A stretch of 15,344 nt of DNA from Rhodospirillales bacterium (GCA_038143065.1 JAYQLI010000015.1:1-15344), one strand, 5' to 3'. Positions 332 to 15,344 are shown, numbered from the stretch's first letter. A program made the numbers and translations. The notes: a model not told the origin generated them from the sequence alone.

Positions 332-593
332 GAATCTGAATGCAGTTCAAAAACAAACCAAACGCACACTATTTTTGTGTTTATGGGGTATCGGATGTGC
401 ACGCTGTGTTTACAACCTGTTGAGGCCATGAATTCATACAAAGATTAATCGCATTCCGCTTAGGATATTTAACAAATTATCCACTTTCGAACAATAAGCT
501 AACCATGCTCAGACAAGGTTACCAAAATTATAGTTGGTGAATTTTGAGTTCCAGTTCAGGGGTTGTGAGTATCAATGGATCAGTAATATCACT

Positions 594-2707
594 TTAACTT
601 AGTGCTAAGGTTCTCAGTGTAATCTGGGGTCAAAGGTATGTTATGTGCTCGCAGCCCTGTTAGGTCTGGCGACTGCGTTGGCTATTGCAGTTAATACTGG
701 TCCTGGCGAGGGCCTCGCCAGCACCTAGGGATTTCCCGGTGGGATGATTAAGGAGAATGGTTTCGATTTTTGGCACGTCTGGAAACCGCAGAATTGGGTA
801 ACTGTTCCAGTCCCGAGAGATCACTCCATCTTTGTCCCAGGTAACTTTTTCGAATAGTGCCCAGCTAATAGCCTGCAAAGCGCCACCTTCCAGCTGCGCT
901 TGTAGACCGTCCGAATCTACAATTCGACCTGCATCAGCAACAAGCAGAATGTTTTGGATCTGTATCTGAGCCGCATCAGAGATGGTTAGATCCACTGCAG
1001 CAGGGACCCTTTATGCTTCATTCTTGTACTGTGTGTAGGCAATACCTCGCCCAGAACCACTCACTAAGACCCGTGTGCGGAGTTCCTGTTCAAGGCGATT
1101 TAGTACCAGTATGGCACGAGGATCATGAAGATGTGTCCTCCGTAGTTCAAATGAGTCAAGACCTTGGCCCGTTGCGATTTCATCTATAAAGCTCTCGATC
1201 GCGAAGATGTTGAGAGCTGCACCCAGACATCTAAGAGCCGAAGTTCTATGTGGCATTGTCGTTACAAGGTTTTTGACAAAACGTGTTTCTCCAAAAAATC
1301 ACAAATTGAACCAAGTTTCGATGTAATCCACCATGGCGATTCATGTTGGGTGAACCGTCGTGCGGGCCAATTTTTGTTGAGCGAAAATGATTTGCTAAAA
1401 GCTTAGCAGGCCCAGCTAAATCTGCACCACTACGCGGTCGCCCACGAAAAGTTCCTCCTATGGCTTCTGCGGAAAAGGCGGTTATCTGACCTTCTGGTGT
1501 CACTACGGCAGCTAATTCAGTTGCACTGGCAGGACCGTAAGGTTCCCATGCATGTTCATCCTCGCGGTTCCACTTTAGCAATACAGGAGTATTGCGGCGG
1601 CTCATGGCCACTAAAGCAGCTTCGAAGGCAGCGTCATCGGCTCCCGTTATGTCCGTAACAACCTGATCCTGGCATGAATTCCAGGATAACGTGATCAAGT
1701 GACAGACCAAGGCTTTCAGCGATACTTTCGCGTAAGATATAAATACCTTGACTATGTGTCGTAATCCAAAGCTTTTCGCCGTCCCACAAAGCACATGCAG
1801 ATGATGGCGCGAGTGAAGCGTGCATTGTAAATGGACGTTCGTAGCGGGCTTGATGTGTAGGTGCAGATAAATTCTCAGGATTGCTTGGCCTTCTAATGGT
1901 CTTCCGTCTTTCACCAAAAATCGTATGGCGTTTTCTTGATTAAGGCATTCCTGAACGGGGCTTTCTTCTAGTCCCTCACCCAGATCCCATTCGCAGGCTT
2001 GAAAAAGCCGTTGAGCGGCGCGAACAACTGACCATTCAAAGATCCGGAGACTGGCAAAAAGCTACCATCGTGCAAAATATGAATACACTCTGCTTCCAAT
2101 CTGGTAGCGATTTCTTTCCGAAATCCGCGCAGGCTGGCTTTTGCATTTGGAGGTCGCACAATACGTGCATGGACCATTTCGGGTAAGCTGGAGATCGTGC
2201 AGAAACTGATACCGCCCCTCAACCAGTTCAGGTAACCCTCGCATTGACAAACCATGCGCCGCTTCGATGGTGCGAATTTCTGCATAAGGATCAATAGGCA
2301 AATCAAAATCTAGTTTTGCGAGAATATTTATGAGTAAAATTGGCATGTTTGTTTCTGGTCTGGTGAATTCACCATTCTCAAGAATCCAATCTTTCGGTTG
2401 TCCGCCCAGTTGTGCGCAAATGTAGGCGATTGCTGAATTTCTCAAAGTTGCGCAGGCCAGTCTCAAAGCGTGTCCAGATTGTTCGATTGAGTTACTGCCC
2501 GAGGTCATCCCTTCATCAGGGCTGTTTAGCGTACTTACGGGCTGTACACTTATTAAGCTGTCAGAAAGGGTCATCTCTTGATGAACTATACCAACGAGTG
2601 CCGTCGAAATGCGCTGACCAATATCTACTTTTTCCCGTGCGTAGTTGCAGTTTCCCGTTAGTAAGACATAGCCAATCGGAAATGATAGGATAGGACTTAA
2701 TGCTCAT
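594..2707 (-). CDS. Xanthine dehydrogenase-family molybdopterin-binding subunit (isoquinoline oxidoreductase beta / nicotinate dehydrogenase B-like, no cytochrome c domains); multiple frameshifts
   Basis: Stitched from ORFs 2062-2574, 1968-2306, 1634-1825, 1246-1917, 1011-1256 and 660-995. Starts MSIKSYPIISDWL..TGK/VDIGQRISTAL. Motifs DEGMTSGSNSIEQSG, HASLAPS, HSQGIY, GSGCYGHNG(A)DDAA, RTSALRCLGA..NIFAIESFIDE, AYTQYKN, QLEGGALQAISWAL, DWNSYPILRF, LGAGE. Reconstructed end ..IANAVADLTGLRAHNIPLTPDTLRTLALS* with TAA at 594-596. The ATG overlaps the upstream stop (ATGA). Confidence 0.9.
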
Positions 2708-3162
2708 GATACTGTTACTGCAAGTTTCACAGCCTCAAGTATTTGGGGGTGCGCGCCGCAGCGGCAAATATGCGGCGCGAGTGTGGTCTTAATTTCATCT
2801 TCTGTGGGTGTTTGGTTTATATGGAGGAGGGCGGTAACTGCAATCACCATCCCAGCCGTGCAATAACCGCATTGGGCTGCATTAGTTTTAATAAATGCAT
2901 CTTGGACCCTTTTGCCAATTTTATTTTCTCGCAATCCTTCGATAGTAGTTATCTCACGACCCTCAAACCACGATACAGGAACATTGCAACTTAGCTGTAA
3001 CCTGCCATCTACAAGTATTGCACATGCGCCGCATTGTTCCAGTCCACATCCGATTTTGCTGCCTTTCAGTTCCAATTCATTGCGCAGTACATAGACCAAG
3101 GGTATTTCGGGGTTACAAGAAGTGACGAATTGTTTACCATTTATCTGCAGGGTTAGCGTCAT
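2704..3162 (-). CDS. (2Fe-2S)-binding small subunit of molybdenum hydroxylase (IorA/NicA/CoxS family)
   Basis: Intact 152-aa ORF with KIGCGLEQCGAC..LVDG....SC and AAQCGYCTAG...HICRCG motifs for two [2Fe-2S] clusters; directly upstream of the Mo subunit. Confidence 0.95.
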   Translation of the reverse strand: MTLTLQINGKQFVTSCNPEIPLVYVLRNELELKGSKIGCGLEQCGACAILVDGRLQLSCNVPVSWFEGREITTIEGLRENKIGKRVQDAFIKTNAAQCGYCTAGMVIAVTALLHINQTPTEDEIKTTLAPHICRCGAHPQILEAVKLAVTVS

Positions 3163-3632
3163 ATGGCTACCTGCTTCCAGTTCACATCAAGTTGAACATT
3201 GGCGGAACGGAATAAATTCATTACTGGGCAGCGGAATTCAACATTGCGACTCAGCCGATCTAAACGCTCTTTCGGCTCATTTTGTGTATACTGATATTGG
3301 AGACGGACCCAATTGAAATAGGGCGTACGCCCACCACGCCGCGGCTGCCACGCTGGTCCACCTCGCCGCTAGCTTCTATGTCGACACCTGTATACTCAAA
3401 ACTCATTGCCTGCGCGCACCTGTTGATAATAACGCCTTCGCAACCCAACAAAGAGGCAAGGCACATTTCGAGTGGTGTAGGGCCGTGTCGGTATCTTTCT
3501 CGTCGCTAACTAATACATGGTCGCGAACCCTTATAACAGTTTGCGTTGAGGCCTCGTTGCGAGCGACTACGTGTCGTATGCCAAGGGTCTTTATGTTTGG
3601 ATCAACGCTAGGGGGAGAAGGTTATCGTTCAT
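3159..3632 (-). CDS. OsmC/Ohr-family protein; frameshifted, only partly in the ORF track
   Basis: Reading across frames: MNDNL..VDPNIKTLGIRHVVARNEASTQTVIRVRDHVLVSDEKDTDT(G)PTPLEMCLASLLGCEGVII..GVRPYFNWVRL..DRLSRNVEFRCPVMNLFRSANVQLDVNWKQVAI*. Has the OsmC DE..GPTP.E..LA.L.GC and ..RCPV two-Cys pattern. ATGA overlaps at both ends. Confidence 0.85.
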
Positions 3633-4880
3633 AGGGTCATCTCCAATATATCGAGTCCGGTATTGCGATCGAGTAAATAGATCAAACCGTTGTCATCGAC
3701 GTCAACGTCATTTGACTGTGGAGGCTTGCCATCGAGAGTTTCTACCATGTAGTGAGCAACTTCGACAGGAGACAAAGGATCTGCTAGATCTAGCACACGC
3801 AGTCCGCCTGCAAACCAAGTGGCATAAACGAGCGTGCCGTCGAGTTTTTCTCGATATTGGTGTGCACCAAACTTATTCCAGGTTCGCCAACCCATGGGCT
3901 TGCGCGTTCGCTCCAGGTCCCATGCTGCGACAGCTTCCATGTTGTTTATGTCGGTAACATCCAAGACCCACACAAAGCCATGCAGGCGGCCGGGCTTCAG
4001 TGGTCATGCTCTTCGTCGATCGCAATAGCATAGCGGCGCCCGTTAATGAGCTGGGTTAATGGCATGACTGTATGCGTGGGTTCAGGTATCGCTCGTGGAA
4101 AAACGTAAGAGCCAATTTGACGGGGTTGTGTGATGTCAGAAACATCCAGGGTTCGAAAACCTGCGTGCCAAACAGCTGCCCATAGTGTCATCCTACACGC
4201 ATTGCGTGATACAACCAGTGGCTATACCCCTTGCCGGTGGGAATTTCTCCGAAGCGACGTGTTGTCCCCGGCATGTGCCAGCGCGAAATTTCCGTCGGAT
4301 TGCTAGGTCGGCAAGATCATATACCACCAGTATATTACAACATAACCCTCCATTTCGGTCGAAATATAGGCGTAGCGCTCGTCCATATCGATCTGCACGC
4401 AAGCCGAATGTCTTGACATAAGAAAGCAAGCGCGAGTGGATTTATCAGCTACATCCCAAACACGAAAACCGCCTGAATGATATCCACGAGTTTGGGCGTC
4501 TTCCAGTTCGGGAAATCTGAAAGCGATACACCCAGTTGCAGTGCAATGGTGCTATCATCTAGCCCCTGCTTACGGAGGCTTGCGATTTTTTCACCTTTGC
4601 GCAAAAAATGGCGGCGATCCATTTCAACATTGGTGATCATTATATCCCCTTTAACGCGTACTTTGTGGGTATGGGACCATTGATCGGGCGGAGTTACATG
4701 GCTGACTACCGTCGGATTGGTTGGGTCGCGAATATCAATAATCGAGGTGCCCATCGGTGGCTTCATGTGGCCGACGTACGCGTAGCCGTCTTGCACTGTT
4801 ACCTGCCCACCACCGGGGATATCCAATCGTCCCAGGCATCGGATATTGCGAGATAATTCGTATTCTACCTCACGCTTCAT
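3629..4880 (-). CDS. LVIVD-repeat beta-propeller protein, His-rich, unknown function; multiple frameshifts
   Basis: Stitched from ORFs 4449-4931 (from MKREVEYEL), 4193-4429, 3997-4191 and 3629-3973. Repeated units YAYVG..GTSIIDIRDPTNP, GFRVWDVAD, ILVVYDLAD, AGFRTLDVSDITQP, WVLDVTDINN, GGLRVLDLADPLSPVEV, and terminal SNDVDVDDNGLIYLLDRNTGLDILE. Confidence 0.85.
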
Positions 4881-6395
4881 TTGGGTCATTTGTATATACC
4901 TCGTGTTTTTGGAGCTTGCGGCGACGTTCAAGTAAAGTCGGCAACAGAAGCGATACTAGTAGCGCTACCCACAAGATATTACCAATGGTGGAAGAAAAGA
5001 TTGTCAACACATCACCATCGGCCTTTTTCAAGGCAAGCAAGAAGTAGCGCTCCAGTAATGGTCCAAGGATCACCCCAATCAGTATCGCGGCAACATGGTA
5101 ACCTGTGCGCCGCGCTATGTAACCAAGCACTCCAAAGGCTAGCGCTAAATACATGTCAAACATGTATTCACGAGGAACAAAGCCGCCCACTAGCGTAAAT
5201 GAAATGATTAATGGAGCAAGATAAATTGTTGGGATCGTGGTAACACGACCTCATATACCGTGAGATGGTAATATGGTTAGAAACATTATCAAATAGCTTA
5301 TAGCCATTGCCATAAACATGCCGTAGCCCACTTTTGGCTGGTTCTCGAATAGGTGGGTCCGAAGCTGACGCCGTGGTACTGCATCACCACAAGCATGATC
5401 GCTGCTGTAGCTCCACCTGGGATACCCAGGACTAACAGTGGCACCAATGTACCCGAAGTCACGCCGTTATTAGCACTTTCGGGAGCTATGAGCCCTTCGG
5501 GATGACCGGTACCGTATTTATCAGGCGTTTTAGAAAAGGTGCGCGACTGTTGATAGGCGACAAAGCTAGCAATTGACGCTCCGGCGCCAGGTACCACGCC
5601 TATCACTAACCCAATGATGGAAGTCCAGACAATGTGCCACCATCGCCTCAAAGCTACGATAGCGCCTTCAATTGTGTCGTGCCAGTTGGGGGCTTTGCGG
5701 CTCAGCATCCTCGCTTATGATCACTTTTTTTATGATGATAAAGGCTTCAGAAACAGCGAAGAGACCCGCAATGCTGGGATAAGCGGCACTCCATCGTAAA
5801 GTTCAAGAAAGCCCATGGTACCACGCGGCGTGGCGTAGACGACGTCTGTACCGATTGATCCGATCATCAAACCAAAGAAGCCTGCAATAAGCCCTTTAAG
5901 CATATCTTGTGCTGCGATTGACGCAATCAGGGAAATACCGAAAAGCATAATCACGATCATTTCGACTGAATGCATGTAAAAACCAACCCGTGCGAGAATT
6001 GGCATAGTGGCCAGCGCGATAATCGGGTCAAAAGACCGCCAATACATGAGGAAACGAAAGAGATTGAAAGCGCTTGCTGGCCCTTACCTGCCTTAGCCAT
6101 CGGGTAACCGTCCAGAGGAGTAGCCGCGGCTCCCGCAATGCCGGGAATATTGACTAGTATGGCTGGAATACCCGCGCCCATTCGCGCCGAACAATAAAGC
6201 GATACCATAAATACGATGCCTGTTTCCAAGTCCATAGCTAGGGTCAGTGGCATCAGAATAATGATGGTATTGGCTGCAGAAAAAACCAGGGATCCCTCCG
6301 ACGATTAGTCCCTAGAAATATCGTTGGTATTATGACCCACCAATAGCCTAGGGTACTAAAAAAACCTCTATCAGCAATGTACTAGTTTCACCCAT
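4870..6395 (-). CDS. tctA: Tripartite tricarboxylate transporter large permease TctA; multiple frameshifts
   Basis: MGETSTLL..GLIVGGIPGF..ILMPLTL, SLYCSARMGAGIPAILVNIPG..AAATPLDGYPMAKAG, GLVIGVVPGAGASIASF, EGLIAPESANNGVTSGTLVPLLVLGIPG, AILIGVILGPLLE are TctA-family signatures. Confidence 0.92.
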
Positions 6396-6901
6396 TTGCC
6401 AGCATCGCTTTCATTGTTGTTTCGAACCAACCACGCGGAAAATCTTGTGTCGAAGGCTACGACGAAGATCAACCAGCCGACCAAAGAGATCAACGCCGAC
6501 AGGCCAATAATTAGACCAATACGTTGTCCTTTCGCTAATATGCCCATGCTTAATGACAGAAAAAGAAAGGTCGCAAGAGTAAAGCCAAGCTGCTCTATGA
6601 ACATACAAAATCCAAAAGTGGCCGCGATAAGCCCGATCCTTCCCGTACGTATGTCATCTTTGTTAATCAGGTTAGCAAAGCCGAGCGATCCTTCGCCTTG
6701 CATGAGCCAATTTATACAGCGGATCAGGAAAATTCCACACACTAGTAGTAAGATACCGCCGACAAGAAATGTGCTGACCTGCGCTGTCCATGGAGAGTTC
6801 CATATGGTGGAAAAATAGTAGAGCGTAAAAGTGATCGCCATAATTGGGATTACCAGCTCTCCGCCTAACTGACGAAGGTGTTCTTTATCTTCTGATTTCA
6901 T
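6388..6901 (-). CDS. tctB: Tripartite tricarboxylate transporter small permease TctB-like
   Basis: About 170-aa hydrophobic protein between tctC and tctA, with LGF.LATFLF motif. The true C-terminus ..VVAFDTRFPRGWFETTMKAMLANG* is recovered after one indel. RBS GGAGA upstream. Confidence 0.8.
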
Positions 6902-6920
6902 ATACTATCTCCGTTTGGCG

Positions 6921-6946
6921 GACTAGCGGCTTGAATGCCGCTAGTC
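6921..6946. terminator. Intercistronic stem-loop after tctC (mRNA stabiliser or partial terminator)
   Basis: Perfect 10-bp inverted repeat GACTAGCGGC-ttgaat-GCCGCTAGTC between the tctC stop and the tctB RBS; no U-tract in the transcribed (minus) direction. Confidence 0.65.
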
Positions 6947-6952
6947 ATGTTT

Positions 6953-7938
6953 TTATGCGCCGGTCAGAAGTGGCTTAAAGCGCGCGCCCATTTCTAGCAT
7001 TGCCTGCTTAAATGCTTCGCATTCCTCTAAACCCGCATATTGTAAGTATGCAGGTTGGCCTTTGAAGCGATGTAAGCTTCCATTAGGCGGATCTTCGAAG
7101 GTAGCCTTGAAGGTTGAATTGAGAACTTCAAAGCGGTCAGGGTAATCGTCGATCGCCTTTTTGTGGATGCCAAATGCGCGTGCCGACAACATTTCGGGCA
7201 GGTCCATATCGTACGCATCATTTATATTTGGCGCATTGTCCAGAGCTTCACCTACGACGTTGTTGCCAAATACGAGCAAGGTTTTTACTGCATCTCCTGC
7301 AGCAATAACTGAACCGGAGGTGAGAACTGAGAAGTCTACCTCTCGGTCACTGCACCAGCAACTGTATTCTTGCCGCCTGACAGTGGGATTAGGGTTAAAC
7401 TCTACTCCGACTTTTTCACCTTAGCGCCAGAAGGCCTATGGAAGCCGGGTGTGCCATACGTGAGGTGCCAACATTCAATTTACGCTTTTTACCCTCTGAA
7501 ATGATGTCATCCATGGTCTTCAGCGAGCTTTCCGCACCCACAAATAGGCAGCATGGATCTTTGTCCACTTGGCCAAAATATACGTAATCATTCACGTCAA
7601 AAGTTGGCTCCTGGACAGCCCAATTCAGAACCTCGGGGCCCATGTTTCCAAAAATCAAGCTATATGCATCTGGCTTCGCTTTACCCATGTACAGCTCGTA
7701 GCCCACTCGACCGATGCACCGGGTAGAAACCTGGTTCGAACTCAGTGCCAAGCTTCGTTTTCCAAACGCTCGAGAAGGCGCGGAAGTTGCGGTCTGCACC
7801 GCCACCCTCACGGGTTGGAATATAGACTTCGATATTACCATCTGGATAGCCCGCGGCTTGCAATACATTGGGTGTCGCGAGCGCAACAGATCCAATAGCG
7901 GCGCTCGTTTGTAAAAAACGTCTTCGGTTGATTTTCAT
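6953..7938 (-). CDS. tctC: Tripartite tricarboxylate transporter substrate-binding protein TctC (Bug family) with twin-arginine-like leader; frameshifted
   Basis: Stitched from ORFs 7681-7938, 7416-7895 and 6953-7279: MKINRRRFLQTSAA..AAGYPDGNIEVYIPTREGGGAD..PGASGRVG....AKPDAYSL. Strong RBS AAGGAGG. First gene of the tctCBA triplet. Confidence 0.88.
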
Positions 7939-7975
7939 CTTTTTTCCTCCTTGTTGATGAGATCTATTTTTATTG

Positions 7976-8753
7976 TTATGTGCTCATGAACCTCGAATTT
8001 CCGGTTTCGACCAGTGTGGTTAAGCCAGAATACATTAGCCGTGCTGCAATACCCGCAAGGACAATATTCAGCGTTAAGCGGAACAATTTGTCGTCTACGA
8101 AGCAAAACACGGCGTCCTACAATGGTTCCCAGAAATCCCGATAAAATCAAGAGTGTCACTAGACCGCCCAGTGTGAGAATGAAAAACCCAAGAGACCGAA
8201 CGCGAAAATTTTAAGTGCGTGCTGTATAGTCATAAGGGTTGCATGGGTTGCGGTGTGACGCAACTTGTCAAACTGTTGACTCTTCACGAAGGCTGCTACA
8301 AATGCACCGGTAGCGCCAAAGAACATGGTCAGAAAGCTAGAGATTGCGCCAGTTATCCAGCTTGAACGTCTCATAATTGCTGGAGGCTTTGCAAGGATCG
8401 ACCAAATAATGAACATCCCGACCCCTAATCTGTATCATAGCGGCATTCAGGTCGACTACAAAAACTGAGCCAAGCCCAACGCCAATCAATGATCCAAGTA
8501 GAAAGGCCCAAACCACTTCCCAATGCACATGCCGGAATGTCAAAATAGTTCGCCCTACGTTGGAGCCCAGTTGTACCAAACCGTGCACTGGGATTATCGC
8601 TGTCGCGGGTAGTAGAGTAGCAAACACTGCAATCAATATTCCGCCACCGCCGATGCCAAAGGCAACTGTGATAAAAGATCCTAAAAAGCTGAATCCAATC
8701 AGGGCTGTAGCAATCGGCCATTCAAGACCTGCAAGGAAAAGCTCTGGGATCAT
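7976..8753 (-). CDS. Sulfite exporter TauE/SafE (TSUP) family membrane protein; frameshifted
   Basis: MIPELFLAGL..GSFITVAFGIGGGGILIA..LPATAIIPVHGLVQLGSNVGR; second repeat GAISSFLTMFFGATGAFVAA..ATHATLMTIQH; ends ..DDKLFRLTLNIVLAGIAARLMYSG..MST* (TAA 7976-7978). Confidence 0.85.
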
Positions 8754-8754
8754 T

Positions 8755-9792
8755 TCAAGTCTCCAGTACGGTATGGTGGAAAAGTTCTTCGGGTGAAACA
8801 CGACGCTCTGCCAAGAACTGTTCGACCGAATAACGGCAAACTTGGCGTCCAACTCAGCTTTATTTGCTGAGTATCCATAACTCCAGTAGTCGGTTCCAAG
8901 TGTAGCAAGAGTGCGCTCCATGCTTGCATTTAACCATGGAAGCGACAGCCGATTTGCATTGCCCAGCCATATCTTGCGTAAGCGTTCGATTGCTGCATCA
9001 CGAGATGCGACAAATCCTTCATAAATAACTCTTGGCAAACTTGGGTTGTCTCGGACCAATGATTTGCGAACGCCGATCAAATGCATAATTGGAAATAGCC
9101 CGTCTTAGCGTGATAAGCCTGCTCTGCGGCTTCGTAATCTGGAAACAGGCGCTGAAACCTGTCGTCGCCATCTAAAGGCTTTTTGGTGGCTTGGGCGCCA
9201 AAAGCCCATCTATCTCACCGACAGCAGTAGGTCTTGCAGTGTCTCACCTTCGGTGATCGGATCGACGGTCATGTCATCGGGCAAAGCCAATTCCAAGCGC
9301 TCTTTACGGACGCCTTGATCCAGTGCACCTGTGCGCCAGCGAATACTCTGAGCTGAGACACCGTATTCATCTGATAATATCCCTCTCATCCAAAGGGCTG
9401 CAGTCATTTGATATTCTGGAACGCCAATGCTGCGGCCGGCAAAATCAGCAAGATTAGCGATGCCTGATCCTTTCCGTGAAAAGTATCCCGAATGACGGAA
9501 GGCGCGACTTACAAAAGCTGGAATTGCAATATAATTGCTAACACCTCGTGAAACCTCTAGAATGTAGCTAGATATTGACATTTCGGTAATGTCGTAAGGT
9601 GCTGAAGTAACAGCCAGTGGAAACAGTTTAGAGGTTGGCTCTATTACACTCTGCAACTTGATCCGTGGAATGGCACAGACCATCATGCAGCGCCATCACA
9701 CGATCATGATCCCAGGTAGCGAGAGTCAGCAAGTGCGATGACCCCGTACTCTGGGATGGTTTCTGATCGTGCGAGGTTGCCCTGATTGGCAT
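8755..9792 (-). CDS. 4,5-dihydroxyphthalate decarboxylase-like protein (type 2 periplasmic-binding-protein fold, no signal peptide); frameshifted
   Basis: LTLATWDHDRVMALHDG, YDITEMSISSY, AIPAFVSRAFRHS, GRSIGVPEYQMTAALWMRGILSDEYGV, RLFPDYEAAEQAY, FPIMHLIGVRK, DYWSYG..ANK.ELD, EQ.L..RRVSPEELF match the family pattern. Confidence 0.85.
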
Positions 9793-9798
9793 GTTGTG

Positions 9799-10486
9799 TT
9801 AGCTAACTACAACGGTGAGTTTACTTAGACCGGAGATTTCTACCTCCATTACATCACCTTTCTCCACTGCTGCCACGCCAGAGAGGAGTGCCCGAAAGTA
9901 TTACATCTCCTGGGGCAAGTTCATAGTGCTCAGAAAGATAGGAAATTTGCTCTTGAACCTTCCAGATCATCTGATTCAGATCACCCTCTTGTCGGGTCTC
10001 ACCATTAACCTTTAAGGTAATAGACCCATTGTCTAGGTGCCCAACTTCCGATACTCGATGCACTGGACCAATTGGTGCTGACGATTCAAAAGCCTTGCCA
10101 ATTTCCATGGCCGTCCTTAACTTTTTTTGTATGCCCTGCAAGTCGCGTCGGGTCATATCGAGCGATGCGGCATACCCGTAAACGCATTTCAAAGCATTTT
10201 GCACTGATATGTTACGCCCGCCTGGATCCAAGCATAACGGCCATCTCGACTTCATGGTGTACGTCACTACTTTTTGGTGGGTATGGAAAGTTACCAGATG
10301 TATCGAGGTTGTCGGGATTTTTCTGAAAAAGAAGGGATCTTCTTTATCTGGATCATGGCCCATTTCCACAGCATGCGCAGCATAATTTCTTCCAATACAA
10401 TATACTCTACGTACTGGAAAAACCTCGTCTGTGCCGATTATTGGTAAGGTAGGTTGATGTGGTGGTTCTATTGCAAAATTTGACAT
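9799..10486 (-). CDS. Fumarylacetoacetate hydrolase-family protein (fumarylpyruvate hydrolase / acylpyruvase NagK/YcgM-like); frameshifted
   Basis: PTLPIIG..EVFPVRRVYCIGRNYAAHAVEMGHDPDKEDPFFF, (VH)HEVEM, GYAASLDMTRRDLQ, EIGKAFESSAPIG, LKVNGETRQEGDLNQMIW, LAPGDVILSGTP. RBS AAGAGGG before the ATG at 10486. Confidence 0.92.
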
Positions 10487-10511
10487 TTTTTCCCTCTTAG
10501 TTCGCTTGAAT

Positions 10512-10528
10512 AATTGGTTCAACCAATT
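10512..10528. promoter_or_regulatory. FadR/GntR-type operator palindrome 1
   Basis: AATTGGTT-C-AACCAATT, a perfect inverted repeat matching the AATTGGTnnnACCAATT consensus of PdhR/LldR-type regulators; 25 bp upstream of the leftward operon start. Confidence 0.85.
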
Positions 10529-10620: not shown

Positions 10621-10650
10621 TTAATACATTGGAGCATTGGTATCGATAAT

Positions 10651-11330
10651 ATGGCAAGTCCAGACAACAAAGATGCGCTATCACTACTCCGTACAATGAT
10701 TGCCGAAGGTGGTTGGGCGCCCGGTGGCCGTCTTCCGTCTGGAAAGAGCGCTTACGCAAAAATTGAATGTTGGAAGATCTAGTCTGCGACGCGCATTCGA
10801 TACATTGGAAAGAGAGGGTTTGATATGGCGGCGAGTGGGTCAAGGGACTTTTGTGTCTGAAGGCCCGACTGAAAGTGCGTTTGAAGATATTCAAAAAATG
10901 TCTGAAAAACATTACACCCGTGCAGTTGCTTCGTGCCCGATTAGCTTTGGAGCCGATGATTGCAAAAGAGGCTGCGATCAATGCAACAGAGGTGGATATT
11001 CGAAGCATTAAAGAAGCTATGACAGTCGCTGAAAAGGCGACCACGTGGCATGAATACGAAATCGCCGATGATAAATTCCATCTCCTTATCGCCAATGCGA
11101 CCCAGAATCCCCTTCTTACTTCAATGTTTTCATACATGAACACAATCCGCAGGGCAGTTTCTTGGAATAAAGTTCAGCGTAGTTCGGTTGGGCCAGAGAT
11201 TGGTCACCCAAGTTTTTTAGAGCATCAAGAAATTACAACTAGTATAAAACATAGAGATGCAAATGGAGCTGCAACGGTTATGCGGACACATCTCTATTCT
11301 GTTTCGCAGCGATTATTTGGGGAGAGCTAA
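10651..11330 (+). CDS. FadR/GntR-family transcriptional regulator (wHTH + FCD domain); two apparent frameshifts
   Basis: [68 protein letters not shown], then [46 protein letters not shown]. Confidence 0.93.
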
Positions 11331-11401: not shown

Positions 11402-12382
11402 ATGTTAAAGTTCGTTAAGAAAAAAATTCAGGGCTTAATACTTGCCCCGTTGGCAGCGTCTGTATTGGCGACCAGCGTTTATGCAGACACCATAAAGATC
11501 CCGCACTTGCAGAGCCGCCCTCAGATGAACTAGCGGCGTTCTTCGTTGCGTTAGATCGTGCGAAGGCGAATGGTCTTAATTACGAATGGACTGCCTTTTC
11601 GGATGAAGAGCTTGCAATTCAAGCAGTGTTAAGTGGTCAAATGGACATCGGGTTTGGAACGCCTTATGCTGCAATGCAGCGTTCTAAAGCGCCCCTTAGG
11701 ATAATTTTTCAGCTATCAAAGTTGAAGTTTTTCCCTGTTACGACAAAAAAATATTCGAATCTATCAGATCTAAACGGCGAGCCAATTTTATTGCATTCGC
11801 GTGGTGGAGGCACCGACTCAATTGCTAACGTTATCGAAGATAGATTGAATATGAAGTTTGGCGAACGGTCTTACGTGCCGGGCTCCTCAAACAGGGTTGC
11901 GGCTTTGCTTGGTGGACGTGCAGATGCAACAATAATCGATTTGTCCAATAAAAATAAACTGATGAGAAGTGAAGCTGGCTCTAATTTCAATGTTCTTGAA
12001 ATGTTTGATGTCGAGGCCAGCGACGAAGCACTTTTTCGGCAATTTAGATTGGATCAAGAACAACGAGGCTGATGTTGATATTTTCGTGTCGGCTTTGTTG
12101 TCAGTTTGGCGTGATATGCATGAAGATCCCACTATAATCCGTCGTGAAACAAATCCAGATGGACCAATTGGACAATTACCTGCAGAAATTCTAGCGGAAC
12201 TAGATGGCTTCTATGCTGATGCCGTTGAGGGTGGATTGTACGATGCTGCTGGAGGCGGTCGAAAAGCTGCTCAGGCGGATATGGAGTGGTATTCTGCTGC
12301 AGGTCAATTGAAGGTAGTGCTAGCGATCTGAATATTGGAAGATTTCTGGTATCTAAAACCATTAGATAAAGCATCACAATAA
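11402..12382 (+). CDS. ABC transporter substrate-binding protein, NitT/TauT (NMT1/THI5/SsuA-like); frameshifted
   Basis: RBS GGGAGG; Sec-type signal MLKFVKKKIQGLILAPLAASVLATSVYA; EELAIQAVLSGQMDIGFG, DLNG..I..HSRGGGT, GSSNRVAALLGGRADATI; ends FWYLKPLDKASQ*. Confidence 0.85.
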
Positions 12383-12389
12383 GTTTTGC

Positions 12390-12416
12390 GCGCCACGCAT
12401 GCAAATTGCGTGGCGC
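12390..12416 (+). terminator. Intercistronic stem-loop after the ABC binding-protein gene
   Basis: Perfect 10-bp inverted repeat GCGCCACGCA-tgcaaat-TGCGTGGCGC just after the stop at 12382; no downstream U-tract. Confidence 0.65.
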
Positions 12417-12436
12417 ATTCCTCAGTGAGTGAGATC

Positions 12437-13197
12437 ATGAAAAACAGAGCTCTTCTTCTTAAATTTTTATCAGCATTAGCACTATGCATTGCCTGGGAAG
12501 TAGCTGGCAGAATACCGGTTAGTTATGCATTTCCCACCTTTCTGAGAGTCGATGGGCGCTCTTATAAATATGACACTTGATGGTACATTGATGTCCGCAT
12601 ACGGTGAAACATTGCGACCTCTTATCATAGGGATTGTCATCTCCGCGATCTTTGGCGTTGCAGTGGGGATCTGGGTGGGATTAAGCGAATTTTGATTGGT
12701 TGTTTTCACCAATTTTCATAGTAATGCAGGCAGCACCGCTGGCAGCCCTGATACCTTTACTTGTCTTAGCGTACGGCATTGGGCTGACATCGAAAGTGAT
12801 CGTCGTTTGTATCATGGCAATGCCGGTAATTGTACTGAATACCAGTGGCGCGGTAAAAAAACACTCCAAATCACTCAAAGAAATGGGAACATCATTTCTT
12901 GCTTCGAAGTTCGAAGTCATTTTGCGGATTGTCATACCCGCTGCGTCACCTGTTTATTTTCGCAGGTTTACGCCTTGGTGTGTCCGCAGGCTTTATTGGA
13001 GCGATACTTGCCGAGTTAAAAATTACTCCTACCGGCGTTGGGGATATAATCACCTATAGTCGTTCGTTGCTGATTACGCATCTATGTATGCTGCGATATT
13101 CTCGATAATTGTGCTGTCGGTTATATTTCTAAATCTTTTAGACAAACTTGAAACTGTTCTATTCAGAGGAAATCAACGTGGATACATCTCAGACTAA
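12437..13197 (+). CDS. ABC transporter permease (NitT/TauT, SsuC/TauC-like) 1; frameshifted
   Basis: MKNRALLLKFLSALALCIAWEVAG..FPTF, SPIFIVMQAAPLAALIPLL..YGIG, VIVLNTSGAVK, LRIVIPAASP.IFAGLRLGVSAGFIGAILAEL; ends FRGNQRGYISD*. Confidence 0.88.
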
Positions 13198-13989
13198 CGT
13201 AATCGATCCAAAGATCGACAAATCATCCAACGATGTTGCTGTTTCTGTAAGCAATTTATCTAAAAATTATGGTGAAGTTGAAGCGTTGAAGGATATGTCC
13301 CTAGAATTTCCTCGCGGGCAGTTAACTTCGTTGCTTGGTCCTTCTGGTTGCGGAAAAAACGACGCTGTTAAAAATAATTGCTGGATTGCTCGAGCCAAGT
13401 TCTGGTACAGTCAGCGTGAATGGAAAAAGCAGTAGCAGGACCTGGACCAGACAGAGGCATTTGTATTTCAGGATTTTGCTTTGATGCCGTGGGCTTCGGT
13501 CATCAAAAATGTTTCTTTTGGGCTCGAAATGCGCGGCGTCGCGAAAAATGAAAGAGATGAGATTGCTGCTAATTATATCGCTGAAGTTGGTCTTCAGGGG
13601 TTTGAGAATAGTTTTCCACATGAGCTGTCGGGTGGGATGCGACAGCGCGTCGGTTTAGCTAGAGCACTGGCTGTAGACGCGGACGTGCTACTGATGGATG
13701 AGCCATTTTCAGCAGTTGACGAGCAAACAAGACGAAAATTCCAGGAAGACCTACTGGAGCTTGTTGATAGTAAAAACAAGACGTTTATTTTTGTGACCCA
13801 TTCCATCGAGGAAGCAGTTTATGTATCTGATCAAATTGCAATATTACTCCCGAGACCAAGTCGGGTATCAGAATCACTCACGACCTTCAAATTTCAAAAG
13901 AAAAAGGAGCTGACGCAATACGTCGTGATAGCGAGTATTTAGATATCGTTGATGATATTTGGGCGTCGCTGCGAAACTATGTTGAGTGA
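13178..13989 (+). CDS. ABC transporter ATP-binding protein (NitT/TauT, SsuB/TauB-like); frameshifted
   Basis: GTG start after AGAGGA; Walker A LLGPSGCGK(T), VFQDFALMPW, signature FPHELSGGMRQRVGLARAL, Walker B LLMDEPFSAVD, H-loop FVTHSIEEAV; ends IWASLRNYVE*. Confidence 0.93.
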
Positions 13990-13998
13990 GAGGTAAAT

Positions 13999-14758
13999 AT
14001 GCAGATATTTGGTTTTAGGTTACCTGGGATGTCATCACTTATTTTATGGGGAATTTGTGGGAAATAGTGGGTCAATTAAAGGTCACATTCTTCGTTCCCG
14101 CATTGAGTACAGTGCTAAAAACGCTCTTTGAAATAATAGGTACACAGGCATTTTCAAAACGCGCTCAAAAAGAAACGGGTTATGCGTTTTCATCTGGCGT
14201 ACTCTACGCGGTTTCGATTGGAATAATGGTGGGCGTTTTGATGGGTAAAAATCGTCTTATTGATGAGTTACTGTTACCTTGGGTAAATGTATTCTAAGTG
14301 CTCCACTAACAGCATTGGTACCGGTGTTGATGGTTCTATTTGGGTTTGGGACAGAAGTCGATAATTATTACAACTTCATTGTTTGCCGTTTGGATCATAA
14401 TTTTAAATACGCGCGCTGGTGTTAAGCAAATCAATAGGTCTCTCATTGAAAATGGCCATTAGCAGTTTTGGAGCATCTCCTGCACAAGCGTTTTTCATAA
14501 AATATATTTCTGGGCAGCTCTTCCGGAAATTTTGGGCGGTGTAAGGATTGGAATTATTCGTGCTGTAAAGGGCGTAATAATCGGGCAATTATTAATATCC
14601 ATTGTGGGGTTCGGTGCTCTATTTGAGCTATATTCTGCGAACTTCTTGATGGGTCATTTTTGGGCAGTATTGATTGTCCTGTTTGCAATGGCTTTCAGTA
14701 TTTCAGAATTATTGGCATACCTTGAACGAAGGTTGCTTACTATGCCTCCAATCGCTGA
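13999..14758 (+). CDS. ABC transporter permease (NitT/TauT) 2; frameshifted
   Basis: RBS GAGAGG; MQIFGFRLPGMSSLILW..LWEIVG..FFVPALS, LLPWVNVF(L)SAPLTALVPVLM.LFGFG, IILNTRAGVKQINRSLIE, AALPEILGGVRIG..RAVKGVIIGQL. Likely end AYYASNR* at 14758 (14771 if there is no final indel). Confidence 0.87.
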
Positions 14759-14789
14759 CCGCATCAACTAGATTGAATGGATCAGTAAA

Positions 14790-15344
14790 ATGAAAACAAC
14801 ACTACACGATTTGATCGACCAACATCCAGATCATGCCATTGCAATCGGTGAACCCGGGCGGGAATGGTTAACATATGCGGGATTGCGCAGCATGGCGACA
14901 TCGGTACGCCAAAGCCTACGTCAGTTCGGAATTGGTGCGCAGGACCGCGTGGCAATCGTTCTGGCCAATGGATCGGACATGGCATCGGCCTTTGTCACCA
15001 TCGCGCAGGCGGCAACCACTGCGCCGTTGAACCCCAGTTACCGCGAGGATGAATTTGCCTTTTACCTTGAGGATTTGGGCGCCAAGGCGATTGTCCTGAA
15101 AAATGACTATGATGGTCCTGCACGTCAGGCGGCGGAAAAATTGGGATTGATTGTTTTGAACTTGATCCCAACATCGCGCGCGGGCGAATTTACATTGGCA
15201 GGCCCCGATGCAAACGCCGCGCAGGATGTCACCCCAACCGCGGATGATGTTGCGCTTATCCTGCATACATCGGGCACAACATCGCGTCCGAAAATTGTGC
15301 CCCTGTTGCAGCCAACAGCTATAAGTAGATCGCGAGCCCTCCGT
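14790..15344 (+). CDS. AMP-binding acyl-CoA synthetase, oxalate--CoA ligase (AAE3/Pcs60)-like; 5' part, runs off the window; absent from the ORF track
   Basis: Open frame of 185 codons: MKTTLHDLIDQHPDHAIAIGEPGREWLTYAGL..GIGAQDRVAIVLANG..TAPLNPSYREDEFAFYLEDL..DDVALILHTSGTTSRPKIVPL. The APLNP.Y...EF.FYL.D and LHTSGTTSRPK motifs are typical of oxalate--CoA ligases. Confidence 0.85.
   Translation, partial: MKTTLHDLIDQHPDHAIAIGEPGREWLTYAGLRSMATSVRQSLRQFGIGAQDRVAIVLANGSDMASAFVTIAQAATTAPLNPSYREDEFAFYLEDLGAKAIVLKNDYDGPARQAAEKLGLIVLNLIPTSRAGEFTLAGPDANAAQDVTPTADDVALILHTSGTTSRPKIVPLLQPTAISRSRALR

Follow-up and report, generated by a model that had tools for sequence, protein, structure and literature searches.

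The locus and its probable ten-gene operon

We analysed a stretch of 15,344 nucleotides (hereafter the window) from a Rhodospirillales bacterium (GCA_038143065.1, JAYQLI010000015.1), which is the entire contig C15 of a 4.63-Mb assembly in 52 contigs. On its minus strand lie four adjoining genes, encoding a cytoplasmic LVIVD-repeat beta-propeller (3629–4880; 419 amino acids when intact), an OsmC-like two-cysteine protein (3159–3632; 158 amino acids when intact), an IorA-type [2Fe-2S] small subunit (2704–3162; 152 amino acids) and an IorB-type molybdopterin-binding large subunit (594–2707; 702 amino acids when intact). A first-pass annotation of the window had named these four proteins, and the names hold in profile searches (PF08309 for LVIVD, PF02566 for OsmC, Fer2/Fer2_2 and MoCoBD_1/MoCoBD_2 for the two subunits); it had also taken the propeller and the OsmC protein for dedicated partners of the molybdenum (Mo) enzyme. 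We propose instead, at a probability of roughly 0.6, that the genes belong to an operon that imports and breaks down an aromatic or heteroaromatic polycarboxylate, and that LVIVD and OsmC are tied to the importer and the pathway rather than being subunits of the Mo enzyme.

The module was read from intact copies. Scanning metagenome contigs with the [2Fe-2S] protein recovered three loci at 99% identity (L016–L018). In L017 and L018 all genes are open (TctC 329 amino acids, TctB 170, TctA 501, LVIVD about 419, OsmC 158, the [2Fe-2S] subunit 152 and the Mo subunit 702), and in L016 the four module genes are open, with the Mo gene running off the end of the locus. One strand of L018 carries, in order, genes for a fumarylacetoacetate-hydrolase (FAA-hydrolase) family protein, a 4,5-dihydroxyphthalate-decarboxylase homologue, a TauE-like protein, TctC, TctB, TctA, LVIVD, OsmC, IorA and IorB. 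Upstream of these genes is a divergent GntR/FCD regulator; downstream, the opposite strand codes for a tyrosine recombinase. It is rather probable that the four-gene module is the distal end of a ten-gene catabolic operon with a divergent GntR regulator.

The remaining operon genes were placed in the window, on the minus strand and at approximate coordinates, from their intact counterparts. The first gene of the operon encodes the FAA-hydrolase family protein (9805–10522; 228 amino acids when intact), which matches PF01557 at 185.9 bits and NCBIfam PRK10691 at 163.5 bits, under the cut-off of 201. It is followed by the decarboxylase homologue (8758–9798; 346 amino acids when intact), whose residues 20–346 match residues 24–346 of 9jp7_A (E 2.6e-72); the intact protein gave no Pfam or NCBIfam match. 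The TauE/SafE-like membrane protein (7995–8930, mapped from L018 2217–3152) matches PF01925 at 69 bits on the intact copy; a sulfonate or sulfite pathway was considered on account of this gene and rejected, since nothing else in the operon supports it. The genes for the small membrane subunit and the periplasmic binding protein of a tripartite tricarboxylate transporter (TTT), tctB and tctC (6391–7945; PF07331 and PF03401), were located by tblastn with proteins of L018 and of L003, a metagenome-assembled genome of the Alphaproteobacteria, and the gene for the large membrane subunit, tctA, occupies 4870–6410 (501 amino acids when intact; PF01970 on L003), with 10 indel events and its stop shifted to 4870. 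The importer is complete, in the order tctC-tctB-tctA, with PF01970, PF07331 and PF03401 all found on L003 and PF03401 on L018. The divergent regulator (10623–11144, approximate, plus strand; PF00392 and PF07729) was mapped from L018 3–524 (minus strand), where it is cut at the end of the locus.

The LVIVD propeller

The intact LVIVD protein matches PF08309 at 45.2 bits (cut-off 20.2); the fragment encoded in the window reaches 18.7 bits, under the cut-off. Its AlphaFold model (mean predicted local distance difference test score 91.5, predicted template modelling score 0.90) is a propeller with a helical insert at residues 88–135. Foldseek placed the Sphingobium sp. TCM1 phosphotriesterase 5HRM first (E 1.3e-16), followed by WD40 proteins at about 1e-9, and the profile of the family alignment found 5HRM and 5IOJ by sequence (E about 5e-17; 4.8e-17 for 5HRM). 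VIA-align superposed the model on 5HRM over 344 residues with Z 33.3, a root-mean-square deviation of 3.0 and 24% identity; other propellers gave Z of about 31 at identities mostly of 8–13% and at most 17%. An alignment of 20 homologues revealed seven invariant or nearly invariant histidines and an Asp-Glu pair. Fully invariant are the histidines H164, H227, H273 and H343 together with R165, T274 and E293; H70, H72, H228, D292, Q344 and N393 are nearly so. In the profile alignment the family motifs PTHT, DE and GxHQ stand opposite a His, a Glu and a His of 5HRM, the structure paper of which announces in its title a binuclear metal centre in a seven-bladed propeller (title as cited in PMC11656708). 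Judged by sequence profile and predicted fold, the LVIVD protein is a homologue of the two-metal propeller phosphotriesterase of Sphingobium. A thiol-oxidase role, as in selenium-binding protein/methanethiol oxidase (SBP56, PF05694), was also considered and set aside; its hits were sub-threshold on several homologues, and the match to 5HRM was much stronger.

The insert, about 45 residues modelled as four helices (L018:6530–6680; about 4475–4620 of the window, minus strand), is a feature of the closest LVIVD subfamily (L018, L003 and L071–L074) and is missing from the remaining 14 homologues in the alignment. The sequence of the insert seems faintly reminiscent of a helix-turn-helix.

To place the family in its genomic surroundings, we read about 9 kb around each of 20 LVIVD homologues in 17 genomes; homologues at E ≤1e-20 occur in 19 of 400 other genomes, and G030, the unpublished G263 and two weaker second copies were left out. 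Gene calls in these neighbourhoods were filtered by G+C content at third codon positions (GC3) and are still imperfect, the LVIVD genes of L071 and L079 not being called as such. An OsmC homologue was found at none of the 20 places. A large subunit of the xanthine-oxidase family lay within about 4.5 kb of LVIVD at two (L072 and L089), in each case a CoxL-type protein that has the hammerhead domain. The catabolic operons around LVIVD are varied; a transporter component was near LVIVD at 13 places and a TTT at three. The closest homologue, L071 (54% identity), stands among genes for an FAA-hydrolase (62%), TctCBA and an aldo/keto reductase, with no Mo enzyme. The aldo/keto reductase there occupies the place of OsmC-IorAB, and one is also found beside LVIVD in L073, which points to a carbonyl intermediate. 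LVIVD genes recur, as a minority, close to xanthine-oxidase-family enzymes in this species and in L003, L011, L072 and L089, and this suggests that LVIVD propellers often serve the same kind of pathway as these enzymes.

Another arrangement was seen at eight of the 20 places (L078–L080 and L082–L086; LVIVD identity 36–39%), where a bicupin of about 390 amino acids (Cupin_2) comes directly before LVIVD. Behind LVIVD, these clusters often contain RidA, a glutathione transferase, a 3-hydroxyacyl-CoA dehydrogenase and a Bmp-type binding protein.

The molybdenum enzyme and its neighbours

The small subunit, read from the window's own 152-residue protein (99% identical to L016–L018), matches Fer2_2 at 87.6 bits and Fer2 at 25.1 bits. 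The intact large subunit matches MoCoBD_2 (92.1 bits) and MoCoBD_1 (62.5 bits) in the arrangement MoCoBD_2/MoCoBD_1/MoCoBD_2, and gave no match to the a/b hammerhead domain (PF01315); its nearest solved chain is 8gy3_C, the large subunit of a membrane-bound aldehyde dehydrogenase, over residues 475–697 (E 3.6e-26). No signal peptide is visible at the N-terminus of either subunit, so the enzyme is probably cytoplasmic. The first-pass annotation had remarked that the window lacks a flavin adenine dinucleotide (FAD) subunit, a cytochrome c domain, XdhC and MocA, and this proved correct: C15 has no match to FAD_binding_5 (PF00941), Cytochrome_CBB3, XdhC or a MocA-type protein, and all matches in the genome are on other contigs. 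Two-subunit IorAB-type enzymes normally have no FAD subunit and work without one, so its absence here is not unusual.

The main contig of the source genome carries an XdhC gene and a MocA-like cytidylyltransferase gene about 2 kb apart (G000 C35:1547819–1550401), the latter at 162 bits, under the cut-off of 186. The pair probably serves several xanthine-oxidase-family enzymes of this genome.

Conservation of the four-gene order across genomes had been put forward as a measure of partnership, and we counted it in two sets of loci. The first comprises 28 loci outside the window's species that have a credible [2Fe-2S] relative and at least 600 bases upstream, searched by tblastn with the L018 proteins. 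OsmC and LVIVD stand in the same order at one of them, L003; in L011, LVIVD alone lies downstream of the [2Fe-2S]-Mo relative, on the opposite strand. The second set was drawn from 400 other genomes of the class, of which 25 have a Mo subunit at E ≤1e-60 (best identity 45%); in the 1.5-kb flanks of their 28 Mo loci neither OsmC nor LVIVD was found. The order was thus seen at a single locus, L003, among the 56 outside the species. Since many of these loci are short and the class sample has no close orthologue, a count of one in 56 shows that only a narrow group has the arrangement and does not prove it meaningless. Between L018 and L003, identity is 88% for TctA, 78% for LVIVD, 71% for OsmC, 57% for the [2Fe-2S] subunit and 56% for the Mo subunit. 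By these identities, conservation of LVIVD and OsmC appears to follow the importer more closely than it follows the two hydroxylase subunits.

The OsmC-like protein

The intact OsmC-like protein matches PF02566 at 62.3 bits (cut-off 27.5). Its best NCBIfam match, 'OsmC-related (seleno)protein', reaches 55.5 bits, under the cut-off of 95, and the closest solved member of the family is a weak match (E 0.007). Both cysteines of the family are kept, one in 'LLGCEG' and one in 'FRCPV', and in the alignment they stand opposite cysteines of 1LQL. The two conserved cysteines of OsmC/Ohr proteins form a redox pair. Given the PF02566 match and the retention of both cysteines, chemistry of the thiol-peroxidase type is possible.

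Homologues at E ≤1e-10 occur in 33 of 400 other genomes; five of these, together with a paralogue on contig C39 of the source genome itself, reach at least 44% identity, and these six places were read, two of them on contigs shorter than 7 kb. The OsmC gene directly follows an importer gene at three of the six (an NMT1-type ATP-binding cassette (ABC) importer in L153 and L156, TctA in L154), and an FAA-hydrolase gene lies within 7 kb at three (L151, L154 and L156). One, L151, is near an IorAB-type enzyme: in this genome (G305) a single 13-kb cluster holds IorB-IorA-IorB, an FAA-hydrolase (51%), TctCBA (TctA 72%) and OsmC (54%), in another order. The paralogue (about 50% identity; L156, G000:C39:7000–22500) comes last, behind the genes for an FAA-hydrolase and an NMT1-type ABC importer; L153, in another genome, has the same layout. 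Loci L151 (G305:C13:50500–70400) and L152 (G152:C7:1–19900), from two genomes of one family, carry a tandem IorB-IorA-IorB, with two large subunits flanking one small subunit, and, nearby, genes for a pyridoxal-phosphate enzyme, an FAA-hydrolase and a TTT.

Start/stop junctions

The observation that had suggested a dedicated partnership was a run of gene overlaps, and it is accurate as far as the module goes: on the minus strand ATGA occurs at 3632–3629, 3162–3159 and 2707–2704, each joins a stop to the next start, and the overlaps recur in the intact L018 and L003. The LVIVD/OsmC, OsmC/[2Fe-2S] and [2Fe-2S]/Mo junctions of L018 equal those of the window letter for letter, and those of L003 read ATGA, GTGA and ATGA, with GTGA at OsmC/[2Fe-2S]. 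An 11-bp overlap between tctA and LVIVD had been reported as well. It is present in the window and hangs on one base, in TAT at 4896–4894; L016, L017 and L018 read TAG there, so that tctA ends 13 nucleotides before the MKREV start of LVIVD. In L003 the tctA/LVIVD junction is an ATGA overlap. Four-base start/stop overlaps are the commonest type in bacterial operons, and for this reason three ATGA overlaps in succession are ordinary tight operon packing, not beyond chance.

Frame breaks and the setting of the contig

Under translation table 11 the [2Fe-2S] gene is the sole open frame among the four module genes; the LVIVD, OsmC and Mo frames are not open, a point that the first-pass annotation did not raise. 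Reading the window with alternative genetic codes (table 4 with TGA as Trp, TAG as Gln, TAA as Gln) did not restore them. Frameshift-aware alignment to the L003 proteins gave about nine frameshifts and one stop for Mo, three frameshifts for OsmC, nine or ten for LVIVD and nine for tctA. Over 10,994 aligned bases the window differs from L018 by 282 substitutions and by 77 indel events, of which all but one change the frame; the indels comprise 42 deletions and 35 insertions in the window and are not confined to homopolymers. Fourteen frame-changing indels fall in LVIVD, five in OsmC, none in the [2Fe-2S] gene and 13 in Mo. Four public runs from four studies (three DNA libraries and one RNA library) yielded contigs that cover 500–8000 at 95–99% identity and differ from the window there at 56 indel places, the 12 listed among these being at full depth in all four runs; the listed places 6025, 6280, 6310 and 6357 lie at or within 8 bp of independently mapped tctA frameshifts.

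These breaks could also be those of true pseudogenes, in a mobile island decaying in its host genome. The roughly seven indels per kb across the whole contig would fit decay, as would the tyrosine recombinase just downstream, the failure to find the locus by DNA search in nine same-genus genomes and the poor coding content of many small contigs of the assembly. Yet there is a single in-frame stop beside about 30 frameshifts in four genes, a TAA at 1013 in the Mo gene, inside an indel cluster. The damage is moreover spread evenly, with indel density alike in coding and non-coding parts; L017 and L018 are intact; and the window's indels are missing from the contigs of the four independent studies, which are about 99% identical to it. 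Within the ten operon genes, 109 synonymous substitutions stand against 45 non-synonymous ones, a ratio that, on this sequence comparison, is the mark of strain divergence under purifying selection. We consider decay exceedingly improbable. Intact wild copies, the absence of the window's indels from the contigs of four studies and the synonymous excess argue that the frame breaks are assembly errors, not pseudogenes, and that the operon is intact in natural populations. Frame breaks on small contigs of this assembly are probably artefacts and should not be read as gene decay.

Open reading frames of at least 200 amino acids take up 77% of the main contig C35 (2.86 Mb) and 27% of C15. For 33 of the 51 small contigs the share is 0–0.5, against 0.77 for C35; frame-breaking indels are probably a problem on many of the small contigs. 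Substitutions relative to L018 are dense at the GntR gene (about 10623–11144; 138 per kb) and past the Mo gene (160–594; 65 per kb), compared with 9–34 per kb in the operon genes; these parts are either truly divergent flanks or local misalignments.

A DNA search did not find the locus in nine same-genus genomes, and 40 relatives gave one 145-bp match only. The operon is probably part of a mobile island, given the negative DNA search of the same-genus genomes, and the contig probably breaks at a repeat. The tyrosine recombinase (DUF6538 and Phage_integrase; L017:6192–7541, minus strand) lies about 500 bases past the Mo gene, and C15 ends inside it, at about 1–100 of the window. At the other end of the window (11626–15344, plus strand), short broken frames encode permease and ATPase pieces of an ABC importer as well as the beginning of an AMP-binding enzyme.

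Proposed pathway and alternatives

We propose a pathway in which TctCBA would import an aromatic or heteroaromatic polycarboxylic acid, and the cytoplasmic, FAD-less IorAB-type enzyme would either hydroxylate the imported acid or oxidise an aldehyde intermediate. The 4,5-dihydroxyphthalate decarboxylase homologue would take off a carboxyl group, the LVIVD propeller would carry out a hydrolytic step on the imported compound or on a ring intermediate, and the FAA-hydrolase family enzyme would finish the carbon chain. OsmC may act as an accessory thiol protein, most likely clearing peroxide from turnover of the Mo enzyme or of other oxidative steps. These roles are assigned from protein families and gene order. 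Among the functions that the first-pass annotation had offered for its two partners was the next catalytic step, and this option fits: LVIVD is homologous to a two-metal propeller hydrolase, and all the genes are in one putative catabolic operon.

Several points weigh against this proposal. Ranked by VIA-align Z alone, 5HRM (33.3) leads generic WD40 propellers by only about 2, and the aligned His, Glu and His of 5HRM are no more than candidate metal ligands of that enzyme. Every catalytic role is assigned by family membership. The operon holds no ring-cleaving oxygenase, and the aromatic-acid substrate is suggested mainly by the decarboxylase homologue and the TTT importer. Even among wild copies, tctA is split into two frames in L016. 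Short loci are frequent in the synteny counts, and no Mo subunit from the class sample is closer than 45%. Finally, the four-gene order and its four-base overlaps are kept in two lineages whose Mo subunits are only 56% identical, and LVIVD lies near xanthine-oxidase-family enzymes in L011, L072 and L089; on both counts some functional tie to Mo hydroxylases is real, and its closeness could be underrated here.

In the partnership originally proposed, OsmC and LVIVD would serve the FAD-less Mo hydroxylase as dedicated partners, whether physical or functional: as an electron or peroxide sink, in sulfur handling for the cofactor or as obligate accessory subunits. Four-base overlaps joining the four genes in this species and in L003, in spite of the divergence of Mo, speak for such a partnership, and the lack of an FAD or cytochrome c module on the contig, the two redox cysteines kept in OsmC and the 13-kb cluster of G305, which also unites an OsmC homologue with IorBAB, are consistent with it. 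The surveys speak the other way: OsmC is beside related [2Fe-2S]-Mo pairs at one of 56 loci outside the species, no such enzyme is near five of the six close OsmC homologues or 18 of the 20 LVIVD homologues, and in the closest LVIVD homologue (L071) an aldo/keto reductase replaces OsmC-IorAB. As noted, two-subunit IorAB enzymes work without an FAD subunit, and the likeness of LVIVD is to a hydrolase rather than to a carrier of redox equivalents or of sulfur. Because LVIVD and OsmC occur mostly without any Mo enzyme, a dedicated partnership finds no support, and we judge it unlikely. A narrower form, in which OsmC replaces the FAD or cytochrome module, electrons from substrate hydroxylation pass through the [2Fe-2S] clusters to OsmC with a hydroperoxide as terminal acceptor, and the propeller acts directly before or after the Mo enzyme on the same acid, seems to us highly unlikely.

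The placement of OsmC admits another role, that of a thiol-based pathway catalyst rather than a peroxidase, for example a cis-trans isomerase or tautomerase acting ahead of the FAA-hydrolase family enzyme to ready its substrate. The OsmC subfamily accompanies an FAA-hydrolase and an importer in L018, L151, L154 and L156 (three of the six places and this operon), with or without a Mo enzyme. FAA-hydrolase genes are, however, common in these genomes and six places were examined; both cysteines are at positions typical of the peroxidase family; and we know of no OsmC-family member with such an activity. We hold this role to be distinctly unlikely, and prefer OsmC as an accessory thiol protein in the import and breakdown of a polycarboxylate.

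Occurrence and significance

At least half of the words sampled from the stretch occur in 15 sequencing runs, and 32–50% of them in six metatranscriptome libraries; the 20 rows with matches trace to 14 studies, whose samples were marine, estuary, seawater and salt-marsh. A single RNA library has contigs spanning almost the whole of 583–7994, which is evidence of presence in an RNA library, not of transcription. With near-identical copies in metagenomes of 14 studies and in six metatranscriptome libraries, the pathway may matter for the turnover of some dissolved aromatic acid. The operon brings together three protein groups that are poorly understood, namely FAD-less IorAB enzymes, cytoplasmic LVIVD propellers and an OsmC subfamily linked to importers, and sets them beside an importer and a known type of decarboxylase. 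This provides a concrete setting for finding their substrates, and the locus is of interest mainly as a way into these three groups.

Comparison with known systems

Literature searches on LVIVD, on quinolinate degradation and on dihydroxyphthalate decarboxylase with Mo enzymes or TTT importers returned no description of this gene combination. The operon belongs to a familiar type, of which it is an uncharacterised variant. Its Mo enzyme agrees with the IorAB type (isoquinoline 1-oxidoreductase; 8GY3) in having a two-domain [2Fe-2S] small subunit followed by a large subunit of about 700 amino acids, with the MoCoBD_2/MoCoBD_1/MoCoBD_2 arrangement, no hammerhead and no FAD subunit. It differs in lacking a cytochrome c subunit or domain and a visible signal peptide at either N-terminus, and identity to the 8GY3 large subunit is low, the match being limited to residues 475–697 (E 3.6e-26).

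The LVIVD protein shares with the Sphingobium phosphotriesterase/haloalkylphosphorus hydrolase (5HRM, 5IOJ) a beta-propeller of similar size. By contrast, it has no signal peptide, carries the helical insert at 88–135, is 18–24% identical and is found in carboxylate-uptake operons, not in phosphorus scavenging. OsmC likewise resembles the OsmC/Ohr thiol peroxidases (1LQL) in its PF02566 match (62.3 bits) and both cysteines, but its subfamily typically follows an importer gene in catabolic operons and matches solved members weakly.

At the level of the whole operon, phthalate-type operons (4,5-dihydroxyphthalate decarboxylase 9JP7, TTT) also have a full-length decarboxylase homologue (E 2.6e-72), a TTT importer and a GntR regulator; the present operon has no ring-hydroxylating dioxygenase or dihydrodiol dehydrogenase, and a Mo hydroxylase, a propeller, OsmC and an FAA-hydrolase instead. 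An LVIVD-repeat protein of about 409 amino acids (cadB1) is reported among the pathway enzymes of the cad (chloranilic acid) cluster of Herbaspirillum lusitanum TQ07, beside an oxidoreductase and the binding protein of a transporter; it is not among the three genes that the authors report having characterised (PMC13191619). There the partner is an FAD monooxygenase and the transporter is of the TAXI-TRAP type (PMC13191619).

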